Shown: positions 10,153-21,993, counted from the first letter of the stretch. The stretch is DNA of 22,812 bases from a virus (UHGV-0339689); one strand, 5' to 3'. Notes: generated by a model from the sequence alone, not told the origin. Numbers and translations: made by a program.

Positions 10153-10178
10153 TAAAAAAGCCTCGCATTAGCGAGGCT
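10153..10178 (-). terminator. Rho-independent terminator
   Basis: Hairpin GCCTCGC-ATTA-GCGAGGC (10160-10177) followed on minus strand by TTTTTT. Confidence 0.6.
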
Positions 10179-10284
10179 CGTTTATATCTTGAAGGTGAAT
10201 ACTTATTGTCTTATCTATCCACGGGAAACATTAAGATTATTACACCCGTTAGTTGGGAAATAAAACAAAATGCAGGTGGTTTAT

Positions 10285-10509
10285 TTATTCTTTGCTGATT
10301 GCTTTCTGAATGGCATCGGCTAATGGTTCAATTAAGCCAATAGCTGCTTTTAATTCCTGTTCAAATTTTGCACTTGTAGCCTGACCACCTGCAGAAGAAA
10401 GTGAGGCCTTAACTAATTCAAGGGCAGCTTGAACAGCTATAACCCTCTGTTTTTGAGCTTGAGTTACAGGCTGAGCACCTATTCCTGAAGGGAAATAATT
10501 CTCTAACAT
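10285..10509 (-). CDS. Small Ala-rich hypothetical protein (74 aa), lower-GC moron
   Basis: SD GGAGGT 4 nt upstream of ATG; own terminator about 110 nt downstream; 267-bp AT-rich gap upstream. Confidence 0.5.
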   Translation of the reverse strand: MLENYFPSGIGAQPVTQAQKQRVIAVQAALELVKASLSSAGGQATSAKFEQELKAAIGLIEPLADAIQKAISKE

Positions 10510-15955: not shown

Positions 15956-16605
15956 GCCGCCATCTCCCTGACCAGTTTTTCCGCCTGCTGGCGAACCTGC
16001 GCCAGAAAGGCCTCACCACATGCCTCAAGTTCATCGCGCCCGATGTAGCTGATTGCCGGTCCCTTCCAGGTCTTGTCGAAAACAGCAATAGCACCAGCGA
16101 AGAAAGCGCCTGTCGGTACCTGCTTCTCGTCTTTCGGGATAAACCAGACAGGCAGTTCAAAACCAATACGCCCGCGAATAAAAGCAATATGATCTGCATT
16201 TTCCGGCCACCACACTTCGCTGGTGGCAGCTTTGATCAGGAAAACATAGCGCCCGCCTTTATCACGCATGGCACTGGCATGCTTCATGATGTAACGCATG
16301 CCGGTGATGTATTGCCCCTCATGCTGACTGGCGCGGCTGTATGGGGGATTACCAAAGGCAGCACCTTTAAGCTCCGCAAGACGTTCTGACCAGTCATGCG
16401 CCAGCGCGTTGTCTTCCGCCGTGTAATACGCGGCACATTTGGCGTTATCACCGTCAGTGAACAGATCCAGAACAAACGGGCCAAACAGGGTGTTAATTCC
16501 CCAGAAAATGTTGTCCGGCGTGCGCCACTGATCGCCCACTTCCTTCAGTTCATGGGCTGGTTTGTTCCGCAGTTCCACCAGCGCCTGGCAATATTTATTA
16601 CTCAT
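15952..16605 (-). CDS. Phage Dam-type N6-adenine DNA methyltransferase
   Basis: NPPY motif (AAFGNPPYS); track ORF starts at GTG 16638, but the ATG at 16605 shares a TAATG junction with the upstream gene. Confidence 0.8.
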   Translation of the reverse strand: MSNKYCQALVELRNKPAHELKEVGDQWRTPDNIFWGINTLFGPFVLDLFTDGDNAKCAAYYTAEDNALAHDWSERLAELKGAAFGNPPYSRASQHEGQYITGMRYIMKHASAMRDKGGRYVFLIKAATSEVWWPENADHIAFIRGRIGFELPVWFIPKDEKQVPTGAFFAGAIAVFDKTWKGPAISYIGRDELEACGEAFLAQVRQQAEKLVREMAA

Positions 16606-17099
16606 TAAGCCCCCACGTAATTCCCTGACAGATACCACTCTTCACCCGATGCAGCGCGCTTGCTGCTTTTCCGTAAGCACCGCTCACGACGCGCCAGAAA
16701 ATTGTTTCGCTCTTGCTGGGAGTGGCTTTCACGGAATGCCGCCATCCACACCGTTGCAGCACGACGGTATAAGCCCCTGGACTCCAGTTCTTCCGCCTGG
16801 CGGGTCAGGCACAAAATCTCCCGCGGGTCGTTAGTGCCGACATAGAAATTGCGCACAGGTCTGGTTTCACGAACTGGTTGCGGTTCCGCCTCCTGCGCTC
16901 TCTCAGTCAGGCGCGGGAAATGTCTGCGTGTATCCCCTTCACAACGGTGAGCCACACGACCACTCTGACGTAACTTGCTTGCTGACTGCAGAACGCGCTG
17001 CCGTGAGTAACCTGCAAAAGCATCCGCAATGTCTCCGGAAGTACACCCCGGATGGGCTTCAATGTATTTCTGAACTTCATTCAAAAGACTCATGATCAC
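16605..17099 (-). CDS. PerC/ANR-like transcriptional regulator
   Basis: 164 aa; LESRGLYRRAATVWMAA motif as remembered for PerC-family proteins; basic C-terminus. Confidence 0.5.
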   Translation of the reverse strand: MIMSLLNEVQKYIEAHPGCTSGDIADAFAGYSRQRVLQSASKLRQSGRVAHRCEGDTRRHFPRLTERAQEAEPQPVRETRPVRNFYVGTNDPREILCLTRQAEELESRGLYRRAATVWMAAFRESHSQQERNNFLARRERCLRKSSKRAASGEEWYLSGNYVGA

Positions 17100-18037
17100 C
17101 CCCTGAATCCTGCCGGGATCTGGCTGTAGTCCACGTTGTCGTAACTGGCTTTGAAGTACGGGTCTTCGCGTTTTTCGGTGTACGTGCTGACGGACGGCGA
17201 TAAGCGCAGGGAAAGCTCATCCCATTTTTCCCGCAGCTTCGACGGGCTGAGCACGTTACGGCACCAGAACGGATCGCGGCTGACGCGGCTGTACATCTCG
17301 CAGATTTGTTTGTGAGTACGACCATCCTGCACACACATCAGGCGAATTTCGTTTGCCCAGGCTGTCCAGTTCGGTTCTTTGGGACGAACCACCTCGCCGT
17401 CACATTCGGCGGCCTGCTCGTACAGGGCGATGATTTTTTTCCAGAGCCACTGTGCGCAGGTCAAATCATCCTGCGTTCCCCACTGGCGCTTTTTAGGGCT
17501 GAATACAACCGCATCAGGATGGCGAGTTAAAAACTCCTGTTCAGCCGTCTGCGTGTCCGGTTGCGAAGCGTCCGGACGAGAAGTTTTTTTATCTGACGGA
17601 TCATGTTTTGATTTTACTGACGGATCCCCGCCAGATTCTGACGGGTGAAAACCCGCTTTTTTGCCAGATTTCGACGCATCAAATTTTGACGGGTCAGATT
17701 TTGATGCGTCAGATTTTGACGGGTCAGAATCTGACAGTTGAGAAAATGCCGCTGCCTGAAGCTTCGCAACGTTAAGCTGATAAACATTCGACGCATTGCG
17801 GTTACCCTGGCGACGCGCCTTACGCGTTAACCAGCCTTCTGCTTCCAGCCGTGCGATAGCCGTTCTGACGGTACTCATCCCCGCGCCAATCTGACGGGCA
17901 ATGGTTTCAATTGATGGCCAGCACACACCTTCGTCATTACTGAAATCAGCCAGGCGGGCCATAATTGCCACGCTGGATAATTTCATGCCTGACGCAGCGC
18001 AACCATCCCATACATAGCCGGTTAATTTAGTGCTCAT
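17096..18037 (-). CDS. Replication initiator, lambda O-like (N-terminal HTH, internal iteron-encoded repeat linker)
   Basis: 313 aa; N-terminal winged-helix/HTH; central SDxSKSD repeat peptide encoded by the DNA iterons; conserved phage C-terminal domain. Confidence 0.8.
   Translation of the reverse strand: MSTKLTGYVWDGCAASGMKLSSVAIMARLADFSNDEGVCWPSIETIARQIGAGMSTVRTAIARLEAEGWLTRKARRQGNRNASNVYQLNVAKLQAAAFSQLSDSDPSKSDASKSDPSKFDASKSGKKAGFHPSESGGDPSVKSKHDPSDKKTSRPDASQPDTQTAEQEFLTRHPDAVVFSPKKRQWGTQDDLTCAQWLWKKIIALYEQAAECDGEVVRPKEPNWTAWANEIRLMCVQDGRTHKQICEMYSRVSRDPFWCRNVLSPSKLREKWDELSLRLSPSVSTYTEKREDPYFKASYDNVDYSQIPAGFRG
17591..17729. repeat. Origin iterons (core TGACGG(G/A)TC), including three exact-period 15-bp tandem units at 17685-17729
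   Basis: TTTTGACGGGTCAGA / TTTTGATGCGTCAGA / TTTTGACGGGTCAGA in tandem plus four degenerate copies upstream and adjacent T-rich tracts, all inside the O-like gene. Confidence 0.75.
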
Positions 18038-18385: not shown

Positions 18386-18951
18386 GCGTTAGTTTCTCCA
18401 CAACCAGAAGCAATCGACGCCACGACGCCCGGAGCTGCACACTCGCGGGCGTCATTACTTTCTGAAATGCAAAAAATTTTGTAGACAAGTGCTGCATGCT
18501 CCTGCAGCTTCGAAATTGAGAGATACAGCTCGTCGTTAATTGCTGTCTTCTCATGCGGTTCCACTACACCGTCTTCGATTGCTGAACGAATCTGTTTTGA
18601 ATAACTGCCGATCTGTTCAATGACTTCCAGCAGACGCTGGTTAATATCGGCGTTGTCCACATCCTCGACGTCAGGAAGAGACACAAAGACGCCATTTGCA
18701 GACTGCGCCACAGCATCAGCAATGAAGTGAGTGCCACCAGCACGCTGTAAAACCATTGCCCATCCCAGCGGGAAAATCTGATCGCCATCTGCACGAAGGC
18801 GGTTGAATAAAGCGTTTTCTGTTACATCGAGCCAGTCAGCCGCTTCAGCGTAACCACCCGGCAACGCCGCGATAGTTTTTCTGACAGCTTTCACGTACCA
18901 CTCAGGCTGTTTTTCTATTTTCCAGTGATGCTTACCCACGATTAGCCTCAT
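18382..18951 (-). CDS. YdaT-like (CII-like fold) prophage protein
   Basis: 189 aa immediately downstream of cro-like gene, as in Rac-type immunity regions; assignment from recalled family resemblance. Confidence 0.5.
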
Positions 18952-18982
18952 CGTTCTGTGGTTAAAAATTGAAAGTGTTCTG

Positions 18983-19183
18983 CTAATCTTTCGGATAGAT
19001 ATCCGGTCTTAAGTCAGATTTCGTAATTGCACCTGACGTGCATTGCTCAAGTTTTTTAGCCAGCACAAAACTGGCTTTTTTATAGCCATTGAAAACCAGC
19101 CGTAAGTAGCCAGGTGTTGAGCCAACTTTTCCGGCCAACTCGCCCTGCTGTTCTTTGGTTAAAGAGTCCCAATACGCTTTCAT
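18983..19183 (-). CDS. cro: Cro/YdaS-like HTH regulator (66 aa)
   Basis: MKAYWDSLTKEQQGELAGKVGSTPGYLRLVFNGYKK...; SD GGAGGT 7 nt upstream; divergent from cI across the operator region; track ORF extension to 19486 rejected. Confidence 0.65.
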   Translation of the reverse strand: MKAYWDSLTKEQQGELAGKVGSTPGYLRLVFNGYKKASFVLAKKLEQCTSGAITKSDLRPDIYPKD

Positions 19184-19186
19184 ACA

Positions 19187-19209
19187 ATATGTACCTCCGA
19201 TGTACATAT
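19187..19209. promoter_or_regulatory. Operator palindrome ATATGTAC-N7-GTACATAT overlapping PR -10 and start site
   Basis: Perfect 8-bp inverted arms read directly in sequence. Confidence 0.6.
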
Positions 19210-19233
19210 TACATGATTGAAATGAACCTTCAA
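19206..19233 (-). promoter_or_regulatory. Candidate PR (minus strand -35 TTGAAG, 16 bp, -10 TAATAT) driving cro
   Basis: Hexamers at 19233-19228 and 19211-19206 on minus strand; about 20-nt leader with SD before cro ATG. Confidence 0.5.
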
Positions 19234-19237
19234 GATA

Positions 19238-19258
19238 CTTGTACCTTAACGGTACAAG
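19238..19258. promoter_or_regulatory. Operator palindrome CTTGTACC-N5-GGTACAAG overlapping PRM -35
   Basis: Perfect 8-bp inverted arms; shares the GTAC core with the other operator. Confidence 0.6.
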
Positions 19259-19267
19259 GGTTTTAAT
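19239..19267 (+). promoter_or_regulatory. Candidate PRM (-35 TTGTAC, 17 bp, -10 TTTAAT) giving near-leaderless cI mRNA
   Basis: -10 ends 6 nt before the cI ATG at 19274; no SD. Confidence 0.5.
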
Positions 19268-19273
19268 TTCGTT

Positions 19274-19948
19274 ATGAAAACAATCCATGACATCCGGCGG
19301 TCTAACGCCAGAAAACTGAGAGATGGTGTTGGCGGGAATTCTTCCTTTGCCACTATGATTGATCGCGAGCCAACCCAGACCAGCAGGTTTATGGGAGATG
19401 GTGCTACTAAAAATATCGGTGACAGCATGGCACGACACATCGAAAAATGTTTCGACCTGCCTGTCGGATGGCTCGATCAAGAACACCAGACAACGAACAT
19501 CACAAAAAAACCTGATGTTTCAATCACTAATAAACAAATCACATTAGTCCCTGTCATATCATGGGTACAGGCCGGAGCATGGAAAGAAGTTGGATATTCT
19601 GAGGTTGATTTGAGCACAGCAGAAACGTATCCCTGCCCTGTCCCCTGTGGGGAAATGACTTATATCTTGCGGGTGATAGGTGATTCAATGATTGATGAGT
19701 ACCGCCCGGGAGACATGATTTTTGTCGATCCTGAAGTACCTGCCTGCCACGGTGACGACGTTATTGCATTGATGCACGATACAGGTGAAACCACCTTCAA
19801 AAGGTTGATAGAAGATGGGACACAGCGTTATCTCAAAGCGTTAAACCCAAACTGGCCTGAGCCTTACATTAAGATCAACGGTAATTGCTCTATAATTGGT
19901 ACAGTGATTTTCTCAGGAAAACCAAGAAGATACAAAATCAAAGCCTAA
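19274..19948 (+). CDS. cI: CI-type repressor with S24 (LexA-like) autopeptidase domain
   Basis: 224 aa; Ala-Gly site (VQAGAW), catalytic Ser in GDSM and Lys in TFKRL; divergent from cro. Confidence 0.85.
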   Translation: MKTIHDIRRSNARKLRDGVGGNSSFATMIDREPTQTSRFMGDGATKNIGDSMARHIEKCFDLPVGWLDQEHQTTNITKKPDVSITNKQITLVPVISWVQAGAWKEVGYSEVDLSTAETYPCPVPCGEMTYILRVIGDSMIDEYRPGDMIFVDPEVPACHGDDVIALMHDTGETTFKRLIEDGTQRYLKALNPNWPEPYIKINGNCSIIGTVIFSGKPRRYKIKA

Positions 19949-19960
19949 TCAATGTTTATG

Positions 19961-19984
19961 AACCTGCTTCGGCAGGTTTTTTTA
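19961..19984 (+). terminator. Rho-independent terminator after cI
   Basis: AACCTGC-TTCG-GCAGGTT followed by TTTTTTT. Confidence 0.75.
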
Positions 19985-19987
19985 TAC

Positions 19988-20016
19988 TTGACAATGTACC
20001 TTTGAGATACATAATG
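19988..20016 (+). promoter_or_regulatory. Candidate PL-like promoter (-35 TTGACA, 16-17 bp, -10 CATAAT) with two TGTACC operator-like half sites
   Basis: Consensus -35 at 19988-19993; AATGTACC repeated at 19993-20000 and 20015-20022. Confidence 0.4.
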
Positions 20017-20437
20017 TACCCAAGAGAAACAACAAACAGGCAGGACGTCCACGAAGTAGCCGCCTGGGGCATATGAAGTCCAAGATGATTCGTTAGCAAC
20101 AAAACGCCCATAGGACGCTTCGCTCTTTAACAATTTGAATATTTTCAGCGTCAATGATCTGTTTAGCTCCCTACAAGTAAATGTAGCGTAGCACCATGAT
20201 AAATCCTGCTAGTGTTTAGTTAAAAATCGCGCGAGAGCAAGAACGACGTGAGGGCAGGCAATATTGATAGTGTTATTGCTATTAGTTTATCAAAAATATT
20301 TAGACGACCCAGATGAATATTTTTAATACATACTCCCCCTAATTTAACAGGAGTAAATGTTGATGAATAACGAGACATCTATACTCAACAATTGTATGAT
20401 ATGAACAATTATATAACATAATGTAGGAAAAATAAAA

Positions 20438-21034
20438 ATGGATTGGCATGACCTTATATCAAAGGTAATTATCGGACTTGTTACAGGCTCAATCGCAGCT
20501 TACTTAACTGCGCGATATGCACTCGGCCGTTATTATAAAGAAAAATGGTGGGACAAAAGAATAGATTTGTATACGCAATTAGTTGACTGTGTTTATCTTC
20601 TAAAAAACACAGCTGACTATTGGTATAAACATGAGTTACATCACGCTTCACAATTCCCAACCTACTTTAGTTACAAATCAAAAGAAGAAAATGAAATCCT
20701 TAGCAAATCTTTCTCTAATGAGCTTGAAAAACTCAGTAGAATAGGTGAGCTATCTTCATTATTCTTAACAGAAGAGTGTGGGGATAAAATCCGTTCATTC
20801 ATTGAAAATGAAGAAAATCTATTTATACAATGGGAGTTTGATAGTATAGAGTTGATAGATGCCCACAAGTCAAGACTTGATAAATTAAAAGTATTACTAG
20901 ACGATATTATCTCTGAAGCAAAGAGAGAGCTTAAGGTCAATAAAAAACATAACAGCCTAAAGAATATAAAGTGGTCCATAACTATGCCAGACCAAAAAAA
21001 TGATGAGCCAATTAATTATTACGACAATCATTAA
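20438..21034 (+). CDS. Hypothetical membrane-anchored protein (198 aa), low-GC moron; candidate phage-exclusion/defence effector
   Basis: SD AGGAAA 7 nt upstream; N-terminal TM helix (ISKVIIGLVTGSIAAYLTARYAL) then charged Lys/Glu/Asn-rich soluble domain; flanked by terminators; GC clearly below flanks by eye. Confidence 0.75.
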   Translation: MDWHDLISKVIIGLVTGSIAAYLTARYALGRYYKEKWWDKRIDLYTQLVDCVYLLKNTADYWYKHELHHASQFPTYFSYKSKEENEILSKSFSNELEKLSRIGELSSLFLTEECGDKIRSFIENEENLFIQWEFDSIELIDAHKSRLDKLKVLLDDIISEAKRELKVNKKHNSLKNIKWSITMPDQKNDEPINYYDNH

Positions 21035-21044
21035 AACACTTTAG

Positions 21045-21067
21045 AACCCGCTGGGCGGGTTTTATTC
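21045..21067 (+). terminator. Rho-independent terminator after moron
   Basis: AACCCGC-TGG-GCGGGTT followed by TTTATTC. Confidence 0.65.
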
Positions 21068-21222
21068 AAATATACTTTGCACATCACAAATAAAACTATA
21101 ACGTCCTTCTTCTTTTCCTAATATCTTATATCTACTTATTTATAAGCGGCTTACAGATCTTCAACAGATAAACCTAATGAAGGCGACAATGTTCTGATGA
21201 ATAGCCACCTTTTTACTCAACT

Positions 21223-21291
21223 GAAAGCGCGTTCTGTCCCTTGTCATTAAGTGCCAGTTCGTTAAGTCCAAAACCTCCGGAACGCGCTTTC
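21223..21291. other. Perfect 12-bp inverted repeat GAAAGCGCGTTC / GAACGCGCTTTC separated by 45 nt (candidate structured RNA or protein site)
   Basis: Arms at 21223-21234 and 21280-21291; lies in the 390-bp noncoding leader upstream of the YfdR-like gene. Confidence 0.4.
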
Positions 21292-21456
21292 AATTGAGTG
21301 GGGAAAATAACTGGCGATGGCAGCCGCCCGTTGCACTAAGTGCCTCTGGATGGGGCATTTACTGAAACGAAACCAAAACTTTTAATCGCCTTATGGCGAG
21401 GGATTCGTGCAACCAAAAATCGTGCGGTGCAGCGCACCAATTAAGGAGAACTAACG

Positions 21457-21993
21457 ATGAGTTTTATCCAGACTCTTACCGGTAAGAAGTTCAATTATAT
21501 CAACTCCACCATTGACGATATTTATATCGAGGATATCGCCGGTGCGCTTTCAAATATCTGCCGCTTCGCGGGACACTTGCCGGATTTTTACAGCGTGGCG
21601 CAGCATTCCGTTCTGTGCAGTCAACTTGTGGCGCCAGAGTTCGCCTTTGAAGCGTTAATGCATGATGCAACAGAAGCGTATTGTCAGGACATCCCCGCGC
21701 AACTGAAACGCCTTCTTCCTGACTATAAACGGATGGAAGAAAAAATAGACGCCGTAATCCGTGAGAAATACGGGTTACCCCCGGTTATGAGCACGCCCGT
21801 GAAATATGCCGATCTCATCATGCTGGCAACCGAACGCCGCGATCTCGGGCTTGATGATGGCTCTTTCTGGCCTCTACTGGAAGGTATCCCAGCAACAGAG
21901 ATGTTCAAAGTTATTCCACTGTCGCCAGGCCATGCCTACGGGATGTTTATGGAACGTTTTAACGAGTTATCGGAGTTACGCAAATGCGCATGA
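21457..21993 (+). CDS. yfdR: HD-domain phosphohydrolase, YfdR-like (5'-deoxynucleotidase family)
   Basis: 178 aa; HD motif (ALMHDATEAYCQD); SD AAGGAGA 7 nt upstream; resembles remembered CPS-53 YfdR. Confidence 0.7.
   Translation: MSFIQTLTGKKFNYINSTIDDIYIEDIAGALSNICRFAGHLPDFYSVAQHSVLCSQLVAPEFAFEALMHDATEAYCQDIPAQLKRLLPDYKRMEEKIDAVIREKYGLPPVMSTPVKYADLIMLATERRDLGLDDGSFWPLLEGIPATEMFKVIPLSPGHAYGMFMERFNELSELRKCA

Follow-up and report, generated by a model that had tools for sequence, protein, structure and literature searches.

The DNA analysed here is a 22,812-nucleotide (nt) stretch from virus UHGV-0339689, referred to throughout as the window. Directly behind its cI-type repressor gene lies a promoter with two operators, which is assigned with high confidence to the early-left promoter and left operators (PL/OL) of the immunity type represented by phage SfV and by the Escherichia coli K-12 cryptic prophage e14. 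The transcript of this promoter would open with R1, a 64-nt element that is regarded, likewise with high confidence, as a real and structure-constrained RNA. Promoter and operators are of a known kind and occur, without annotation, in e14 and SfV as well. What appears to be new here is R1, which is in no RNA-family library or paper searched (literature coverage incomplete). In our judgement the chances are even that the leader of this e14/SfV-type prophage replaces the N/nut system. The original prediction, made for the segment 19988-20437, had pointed to the promoter, to operator-like half-sites and to a long untranslated leader; the features discussed below are collected in Table 1.

The early-left promoter and its operators

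The identification as PL/OL follows from a promoter that matches the sigma-70 consensus at 11 of 12 positions, from dyads of the right-operator (OR) type that occur at OR and OL only, and from a sequence block that tracks immunity type. The hexamers TTGACA and CATAAT are separated by 16 nt, the lower of the two spacings originally proposed, and the first of them begins 2 nt past the T-run of the cI terminator, as predicted. PL is the top promoter-like site in 18900-21600, and transcription would start at about position 20022.

The sequence AATGTACC, originally noted as a half-site present twice in direct orientation, indeed has exact copies at 19993 and 20013, and one further exact copy in the whole 22.8-kb window. 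These two copies are actually the left arms of two adjacent imperfect dyads of about 21 base pairs (bp), OL1 and OL2, which form a single sequence family with the three OR sites located between cro and cI. Their operator-like nature is thereby borne out. Allowing one mismatch at most, the pattern TGTAC-N7-GTACA is found at three places in the window (19190, 19240 and 19995), each of them in OR or OL, compared to a mean of 0.64 in shuffled sequence. In the SfV GenBank record, the stretch equivalent to OR is annotated as 'putative operator region', and PL/OL is left unannotated there as well as in the SfIV and e14 records. Binding of the repressor at OL is presumed. The repressor itself agrees in size and operator set with e14 YmfK/CohE and SfV cI.

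The comparison of relatives supports the suggestion of a PL equivalent. The segment 19950-20047 is identical to e14, SfV and SfIV, except for the operator-centre bases 20001-20003, which are variable in SfV, SfIV and PhiR29. The half-sites are invariant among homoimmune relatives and variation is confined to the centre of OL1, so that the block is otherwise kept base for base in SfV, SfIV, PhiR29 and e14. In e14 the identical block lies between ymfK (cohE) and ymfJ. In the heteroimmune Kati/569R4 and SfII, which have different repressors, the whole promoter/operator block is replaced. The left-operon genes of e14 are induced by DNA damage (PMC11228462).

It might also be considered that the promoter is an ordinary one, with repeats that arose by chance and a spacer without function behind it, since the eight promoter-like sites in 18900-21600 are no more than found in shuffled sequence (mean 7.7) and AATGTACC with up to one mismatch is not enriched window-wide. 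This reading is already contradicted by the confinement of the full dyad pattern to OR and OL, by the tracking of immunity type and by the conservation of the leader across genera with covariation, and its probability is minimal.

A variation on the operator arrangement is seen in a 97% identical contig (L187, IMG/VR UViG_2531839374_000010), in which a 20-bp tandem duplication in PL (window 19999-20012) yields three AATGTACC operator units. Its cI differences mostly occur at multiples-of-three spacing, which suggests that they fall at third-codon positions (reading frame unchecked), and its cargo region is 99.5% identical.

A conserved RNA element at the start of the leader

R1 is recognized by a covariance model at 79.3 bits (E 2e-27) and consists of three helices. 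Its covariation was assessed on a gapless alignment of 67 distinct sequences, with slid pairing partners and 500 shuffles as controls. Helices P1 and P2 are paired in 91.9% of the cells of this alignment, compared to 21-42% for the slid controls. The covariation score is 0.764 against at most 0.164 in the controls, and none of the 500 shuffles reaches it. Up to five pair types occur per helix position. RNAalifold independently yields P1 and P2 together with the small GGC/GCC hairpin P1a, and in the consensus fold P1 closes a three-way junction. In the variants from IMG/VR the stem of P1a is kept and its loop changes (AGGAC, AGGAU, AGGAA, AUGGA, AAGGAAA), with GGA always present. The joining strand CACGAAGUAGC tolerates few changes.

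Several other interpretations of the same segment were examined and rejected. A peptide MKSKMIR could be read from an ATG at 20073 in the P2 loop; this AUG is not conserved and is AUACG or AUAAG in many copies. A hammerhead-like reading of the junction strands misfits in the order of the conserved strands and finds no Rfam match. Internal complementarity as in phage P4 comes down to AGGACGC, a short direct repeat for which no convincing partner was found.

R1 is widespread. It matches 1839 of 5426 complete E. coli genomes, about a third, and is present in 43 phage records from Escherichia, Salmonella, Klebsiella, Yersinia, Pectobacterium, Pantoea and Citrobacter, including ST64B, SPN3UB, ZF40, AH07, YeP1, mEp237 and mEp460. 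The exact 22-mer GGCAGGACGYCCACGAAGTAGC occurs in 93 stretches among contigs of one genome per species, nearly all of them Enterobacterales, from Xenorhabdus to Klebsiella, and R1 is found in more than 100 IMG/VR contigs (two scans with at least 120 matches each). The copy in K-12 e14 looks intact. A full-text literature search with the R1 core, in which coverage of the SfV/e14 regulation literature was incomplete, returned only unrelated human primer matches.

A core of about 68 nt is near-identical behind three unrelated promoter/operator types, and in 13 of the 14 annotated loci examined R1 directly follows the repressor gene, whatever the repressor type, and heads the left operon. In mEp237 and Klebsiella ST846-OXA48phi9.2 other genes lie upstream of R1, with promoter-like sequence directly before it. 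In 100 of 179 R1 copies with a promoter match, the distance from the end of the -10 hexamer to GGCAGG is 20-23 nt, which places the start of the structure at about +6 to +9 of the transcript. This fixed spacing, together with the near-invariant 22-bp core, would also be compatible with a block that works as DNA, either as a site for a phage or host protein or, near the promoter, as a site of pausing or loading comparable to the Q-binding element in late promoters. The two helices carry abundant compensatory and G-U-compatible changes, as expected of RNA pairing and not of protein-binding DNA, and no Q-like gene lies nearby on the leader side, which makes a DNA site highly unlikely.

A second subfamily of R1 is found in mEp237, SPN3UB and Klebsiella and Citrobacter prophages (e.g. 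L009 2075-2130), with CCACC/GGUGG or GUCAUC/GAUGRC as P1. It is followed by another conserved block, AACGCGCAGYAGGUUU..AACGUUCCGCCAGCCUGGCGAYAAGGGCAAA, of which the segment CGUUCCGCC is nearly complementary to GGCAGGACG of R1. A 14.9-bit match at 16140-16202 was considered as a putR analogue; it lies inside a methyltransferase-like open reading frame (ORF), is without P2 and was treated as chance.

boxA and the second structured domain

The leader as a whole was originally described as 400 bp of AT-rich sequence. Its composition is in fact not uniform: the G+C content (GC) amounts to 41-45% in 20025-20250, and values of 29-36% are reached only between about 20175 and 21200, in the cargo cassette, so that the leader is composite and only its cargo side is low in GC. 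The leader is untranslated, as had been proposed: no plus-strand ORF of more than 22 amino acids (aa) occurs in 20016-20437, nor is there an N-sized or N-like ORF in the leader. An Rfam 15 scan of the whole window (E<=1) gave no match in 19988-20437. Minus-strand ORFs of 51-69 aa over the promoter and leader were discarded as genes, as they cross the terminator and the promoter, and the indels in the alignment are not multiples of three. The further proposal that the leader might hold a small RNA or an antitermination site gains substance from a perfect boxA and from two covariation-supported RNA modules, R1 and module 2, from which antitermination is inferred.

About 100 nt of the early-left transcript precede the perfect boxA GCUCUUUAACAA, which recurs at the corresponding position in relatives. 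There it is preceded by a widespread hairpin, A6-GCGCCC-NNNN-GGACGCUU, and followed by CUGGAUAUCC. No conserved hairpin of the boxB type stands directly after boxA, where type-A leaders share only CUGGAUAUCC. The hairpin-boxA-CUGGAUAUCC module is found behind R1, behind a put stem of the HK022 type (L372, L389, L314) or behind neither. In two of these IMG/VR contigs (L372 and L389) a stem close to stem I of the HK022/HK639 putL, AGTCGAACGGCGCGACTTTAAACCATGCGTCGG, stands about 40 nt before boxA and is directly followed by GCTCTTTAACAATCTGGA; this is apparently a put-like stem fused to boxA, without stem II. Since a put stem thus takes the place of R1 before the same boxA module, the two are suggested to be interchangeable modules.

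These arrangements raise the alternative that boxA acts alone, with an rrn-type Nus complex (NusB/E/A/G and SuhB) doing no more than guarding the long untranslated leader and the operon from Rho, and R1 being accessory or unrelated, for instance as an RNA chaperone platform or 5' stabiliser. The boxA is an exact rrn-type one and is preceded by a hairpin in relatives, just as boxB precedes boxA in rrn leaders. Its module is combined with R1 in some cases, with a put-like stem in others, or stands without both, and some lineages have lost R1 and kept boxA. However, a near-invariant 22-nt stretch conserved order-wide in R1, with covarying helices, would be left unexplained, most R1 copies are without a boxA within 400 nt, and the terminator at 21041-21067 is intrinsic, of a type that rrn-type complexes are not known to suppress. 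An action of boxA alone is held to be unlikely.

From boxA to about 20295 the leader is homologous to a non-coding block of about 175 nt that is present in some 20 loci with different downstream genes. Within it lies module 2, for which several hairpins and a long-range closing helix are predicted. RNAalifold on eight distinct sequences gives 13 pairs with compensatory change, and 91% of cells are paired compared to 33-41% with slid partners; as the structure was drawn from the same small alignment, support for this fold is moderate. In one IMG/VR contig (L388 1722-2171), boxA and module 2 are followed by isrK (RF01394, 61.8 bits) and C4 antisense RNA (RF01695, 77.4 bits). Module 2 therefore also heads antirepressor operons like P1 immI or Gifsy-1 isrK.

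The latter arrangement bears on another explanation, in which R1 would serve as the target of a regulator or give rise to a small RNA by processing: part of a premature-termination immunity of the P4 CI RNA, P1 c4 or SfV type, a trans-acting RNase product, or a site for a host protein such as CsrA. Module 2 precedes isrK and C4 antisense RNA in that contig, and AGGACGC recurs in the hairpin before boxA. GGA is present in every P1a loop variant seen, and GGA in a hairpin loop is a hallmark of CsrA sites. RNA- or termination-based immunity is reported for SfV (Roberts et al. 2007, cited in PMC3475682). On the other hand, no terminator directly follows R1, so that it is not a discrete small RNA gene, and PL is repressed in the lysogen, so that an immunity RNA could not come from PL there. 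Furthermore, a complementary partner sequence was not found in the window, nor was an Rfam match to C4 or isrK, and the SfV record places the 'immunity region' on a different gene, orf37 of the early-right (PR) operon. A role as target or small RNA is distinctly unlikely on this evidence. As for orf37 itself (SfV GenBank U82619.2, L001, 1152-1988 minus), it may be the locus of the termination-based immunity reported for SfV (Roberts et al. 2007); the window has other genes in its place.

Antitermination as the proposed function

To our knowledge, it has not been worked out how lambdoid phages without N (SfV, SfII, SfIV, ST64B, ZF40, e14 and others) pass their early terminators. Processive antitermination by RNA alone has so far been described for essentially a single sequence family, comprising HK022 put and closely related RNAs. 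R1 may offer a solution to the former problem. Antitermination of the early-left operon by leader RNA together with Nus factors is, by analogy, the most likely function of the leader, and that R1 acts in transcription elongation is put forward with moderate confidence. More tentatively, and with doubt outweighing belief, R1 could represent a second family of antiterminator RNAs beside put, of different structure, whose members modify RNA polymerase in cis and are used by many N-less lambdoid phages of Enterobacterales including e14, often with an rrn-like hairpin-boxA.

The following course of events is envisaged. In the lysogen, the cI-type repressor would occupy OL1 and OL2, which cover the spacer behind the -35 hexamer, the -10 hexamer and the start site, and would shut PL. 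Loss of the repressor, for example by SOS-induced cleavage, would allow transcription from about 20022. The first ~75 nt of the transcript would fold as R1, followed by the hairpin, boxA and the second structured domain. On emerging from the polymerase, R1 would fold and exert its effect in cis on the elongation complex, in the manner of HK022 put, while NusB/NusE would be recruited by boxA as they are in rrn operons. Through both, the complex would come to withstand Rho as well as the intrinsic terminators that cargo cassettes bring with them (here 21041-21067), and read-through could then allow expression of the early-left genes, i.e. those like yfdR/S/T and, further on in relatives, xis/int.

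SfII, SfV and SfIV have been reported to lack N, cII and cIII (PMC3851460), and terminator-bearing cargo cassettes lie just downstream of the leader. That the leader itself supplies resistance to termination is the favoured reading in view of this absence of N, in combination with a long untranslated leader and terminator-bearing inserts. Circumstantial evidence for antitermination is provided by the finding that R1 and put-type stems replace each other in front of the same boxA module, and by the extreme conservation of the unpaired nucleotides of R1 across hosts with a conserved RNA polymerase. A modular leader made up of a 5' RNA, a hairpin, boxA and a second domain could also explain the tolerance of terminator-bearing cargo genes at this site.

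A number of findings speak against this proposal. The thermodynamic stability of R1 is not unusual compared to shuffled sequence (z = +0.36 to -1.05); the structural evidence is therefore comparative only. This agrees with the folding of 20022-20145 and of R1 copies, which was no stabler than that of shuffles. No second R1 copy is detected in the window by the covariance model, the PR operon included. Some prophages (L397, L303/L304) with the same PL have lost R1 and kept boxA, from which it follows that R1 is dispensable in at least some resident prophages. A boxA occurs within 400 nt after R1 in only about 18 of 98 loci, so that the two are frequent and not obligate partners. In the search for terminators downstream of R1, the antisense control came out above the sense strand owing to A/T skew. 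R1 also departs from put in architecture, being a three-way junction closed by P1 where put consists of two adjacent irregular stems. Membership of R1 in the HK022/HK639 put family was considered and rejected, as the covariance model scores at most 10 bits on both and putL is not alignable. For this comparison the HK022 putL was read from the genome, consistent with published numbering (PMC9378689), and the putL-like RNA of HK639 was taken as annotated.

The R1 copy of the window is itself a further point of concern. Its P1 has an A·C mismatch in common with SfV and PhiR29, its P2 has a C·A mismatch that is unique in the 67-sequence alignment and also present in the 97% identical contig, and its core has a C-to-T change at 20048. 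In the consensus fold it reaches +2.3 kcal/mol compared to -7 to -19.5 kcal/mol in relatives, and its minimum-free-energy fold differs from the consensus. The window copy may thus be impaired and, judging from these predicted folds, may work poorly or not at all. Given the helix-breaking R1 mutations, the off-consensus fold and the 4-nt deletion in the hairpin, the leader of this prophage may be degenerating.

The cargo cassette

The gene behind the leader encodes a protein of 198 aa of the orphan family phrog_17948, which PHROG leaves without an assigned function. An N-terminal hydrophobic segment was judged by eye only, and no Pfam match above threshold and no PADLOC match were found for this protein. 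Homologues are rare, with ten in 5.8 billion proteins. Two of these, with 73% and 56% identity, come from two other prophage types, in which their genes fill the corresponding slot behind an S24 repressor, and a third locus lies on a short contig with no repressor on it.

The original prediction held that PL controls a membrane-protein moron. PL would indeed read through the cargo gene as an early-left cassette; the cargo, however, has a conserved promoter of its own, about 40 nt before its ATG, with 9 of 12 consensus matches. The hexamers of this promoter are kept in the divergent homologues (56-73% protein identity), where the -10 is TATAAT or TATAGT. From its own promoter, its own terminator, its low GC and its variable slot, which holds different genes in SfV, SfIV and PhiR29, the cargo is classified on sequence grounds as a moron, putatively expressible on its own. 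This promoter would allow expression in the lysogen. The cassette travels with boxA and module 2, and its upstream boundary is not at its promoter. PL transcripts must cross the terminator at 21041-21067 to reach the genes like yfdR/S/T.

Two observations concern the edges of the cassette. The segments TATACTCAACAAT and ACATAATGTAGGAAAAATAAA before the cargo ATG (20380-20436) resemble the -35 and the -10/OL2 of PL (19983-20029) in the same order, about 400 bp downstream, which could be chance in AT-rich DNA or the relic of a duplicated PL. The non-coding segment 21208-21456, before the yfdR-like gene, is about 88-92% conserved in E. coli prophages without the cargo and marks the right boundary of the variable slot.

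Genomic setting

The immunity and early region of a lambdoid prophage spans the window, drawn opposite to the usual lambda map. Beyond the cargo gene, the yfdR-like gene encodes an HD-hydrolase, and the early-left operon continues to xis/int in relatives. Fifteen complete E. coli genomes contain the same stretch with 100% identity, and one more contains it with 99.8%. The nearest annotated relatives are phages SfV, SfIV and PhiR29 and the cryptic prophage e14; homology to SfIV and PhiR29 ends at about 20137-20142 and that to SfV at about 20097.

Table 1. Positions of promoter, operator, leader and cargo features and of neighbouring genes in the window
Feature	Sequence or description	Position	Strand	Remarks
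PL	sigma-70-type promoter TTGACA-16-CATAAT	19988-20015	+	11/12 consensus matches; hexamers at 19988-19993 and 20010-20015
cI intrinsic terminator	GAACCTGC-TTCG-GCAGGTT then T7	19960-19986	+	stem 19960-19979; also annotated in SfV record
OL1	AATGTAC-CTTTGAG-ATACATA (AATGTACCTTTGAGATACATA)	19993-20013		spans promoter spacer and part of each hexamer
OL2	good left arm AATGTAC, weak right arm	20013-20033		2 mismatches; overlaps -10 and putative start
OR operators	three ~21-bp dyads between cro and cI	19188-19208, 19221-19241, 19238-19258		reference for OL sites
R1	conserved 5'-leader RNA, 64 nt, three helices	20031-20094	+
R1 P1	helix	20031-20036 with 20089-20094
R1 P1a	GGC with GCC	20039-20041 with 20047-20049		GGA-containing loop
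R1 joining strand	CACGAAGUAGCCG	20050-20062		conserved
R1 P2	helix	20063-20067 with 20080-20084		conserved 12-nt loop
R1 joiner	AUGA	20085-20088
Hairpin remnant before boxA	CGCCC-AUA-GGACG	20105-20117	+	4-nt deletion compared to relatives
boxA	GCTCTTTAACAA	20122-20133	+	exact rrn-type NusB/NusE binding consensus; sole exact copy in window
Module 2	second conserved non-coding leader domain	~20146-20266	+	hairpins and closing helix predicted
Cargo promoter	GAGACA-17-TATGAT	20372-20400	+
Cargo ORF	198 aa, phrog_17948	20438-21034	+
Cargo intrinsic terminator	CCCGC-TGG-GCGGG then TTTTATTC	21041-21067	+	-7.5 kcal/mol
O-like gene	replication	17096-18037	-
ymfM- and ymfL-like genes			-
cro		18983-19183	-
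cI-type repressor gene	224 aa, S24 peptidase C-terminal domain	19274-19948	+
yfdR, yfdS and yfdT homologues			+	downstream of the 198-aa ORF

Two observations were made elsewhere in the window. Within the O-like gene, a 15-bp sequence (CAGATTTTGACGGGT) is tandemly repeated four times (17665-17728), and these repeats are probably origin iterons; a weak Rfam match to 'mir-5880' at 17662-17736 coincides with the same array. A sub-threshold Rfam match to Leu_leader (27 bits, 10153-10295, minus strand) ends in a strong intrinsic terminator, GAGCCTCGCTAATGCGAGGCTTTTTT, and is probably a mere terminator between late genes.

Comparison with known systems

The arrangement resembles PL/OL of lambda in having a sigma-70 promoter behind the repressor gene and its terminator that reads away from cI, tandem operators like those of OR and, in relatives, an operon with xis/int. 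It differs from lambda in having two clear operator units instead of three (three are present in the contig with the tandem duplication), no N gene after PL and no genes like rexAB between cI and PL. A search of the leader for nut-like elements, as originally proposed, thus gave a mixed outcome: the perfect boxA is shared with the lambda nut sites, whereas a classical boxA-boxB nut with an N gene is missing, as there is no boxB hairpin just after boxA and no N-like ORF in the window leader.

With rrn leaders, relatives of the window share the order in which a hairpin is placed directly upstream of boxA; in the window this hairpin is damaged by the 4-nt deletion. With the leaders of P1 immI (c4-icd-ant) and Gifsy-1 isrK, the likeness lies in boxA and the following ~175 nt, which are homologous to the sequence before isrK and C4 in the IMG/VR contig described above, whereas module 2 in the window is followed by the 198-aa cargo gene. 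The cargo agrees with morons in its own promoter and terminator, in a GC of 29-36% and in its variable slot, and differs from them in a cassette boundary that lies upstream of the promoter and includes boxA and module 2.

The put RNAs of HK022 are cis-encoded, about 65-70 nt long and start a few nt from the PL start in lambdoid phages without N (PMC9378689). R1 is similar to these in its location at the very start of the PL transcript, in the absence of N from its relatives and in its combination of helices with highly conserved unpaired nucleotides. Unlike the pair putL/putR, it has no second copy in the right operon. As judged from its sequence and structure, R1 is therefore not a member of the put family, though it is placed where putL sits.

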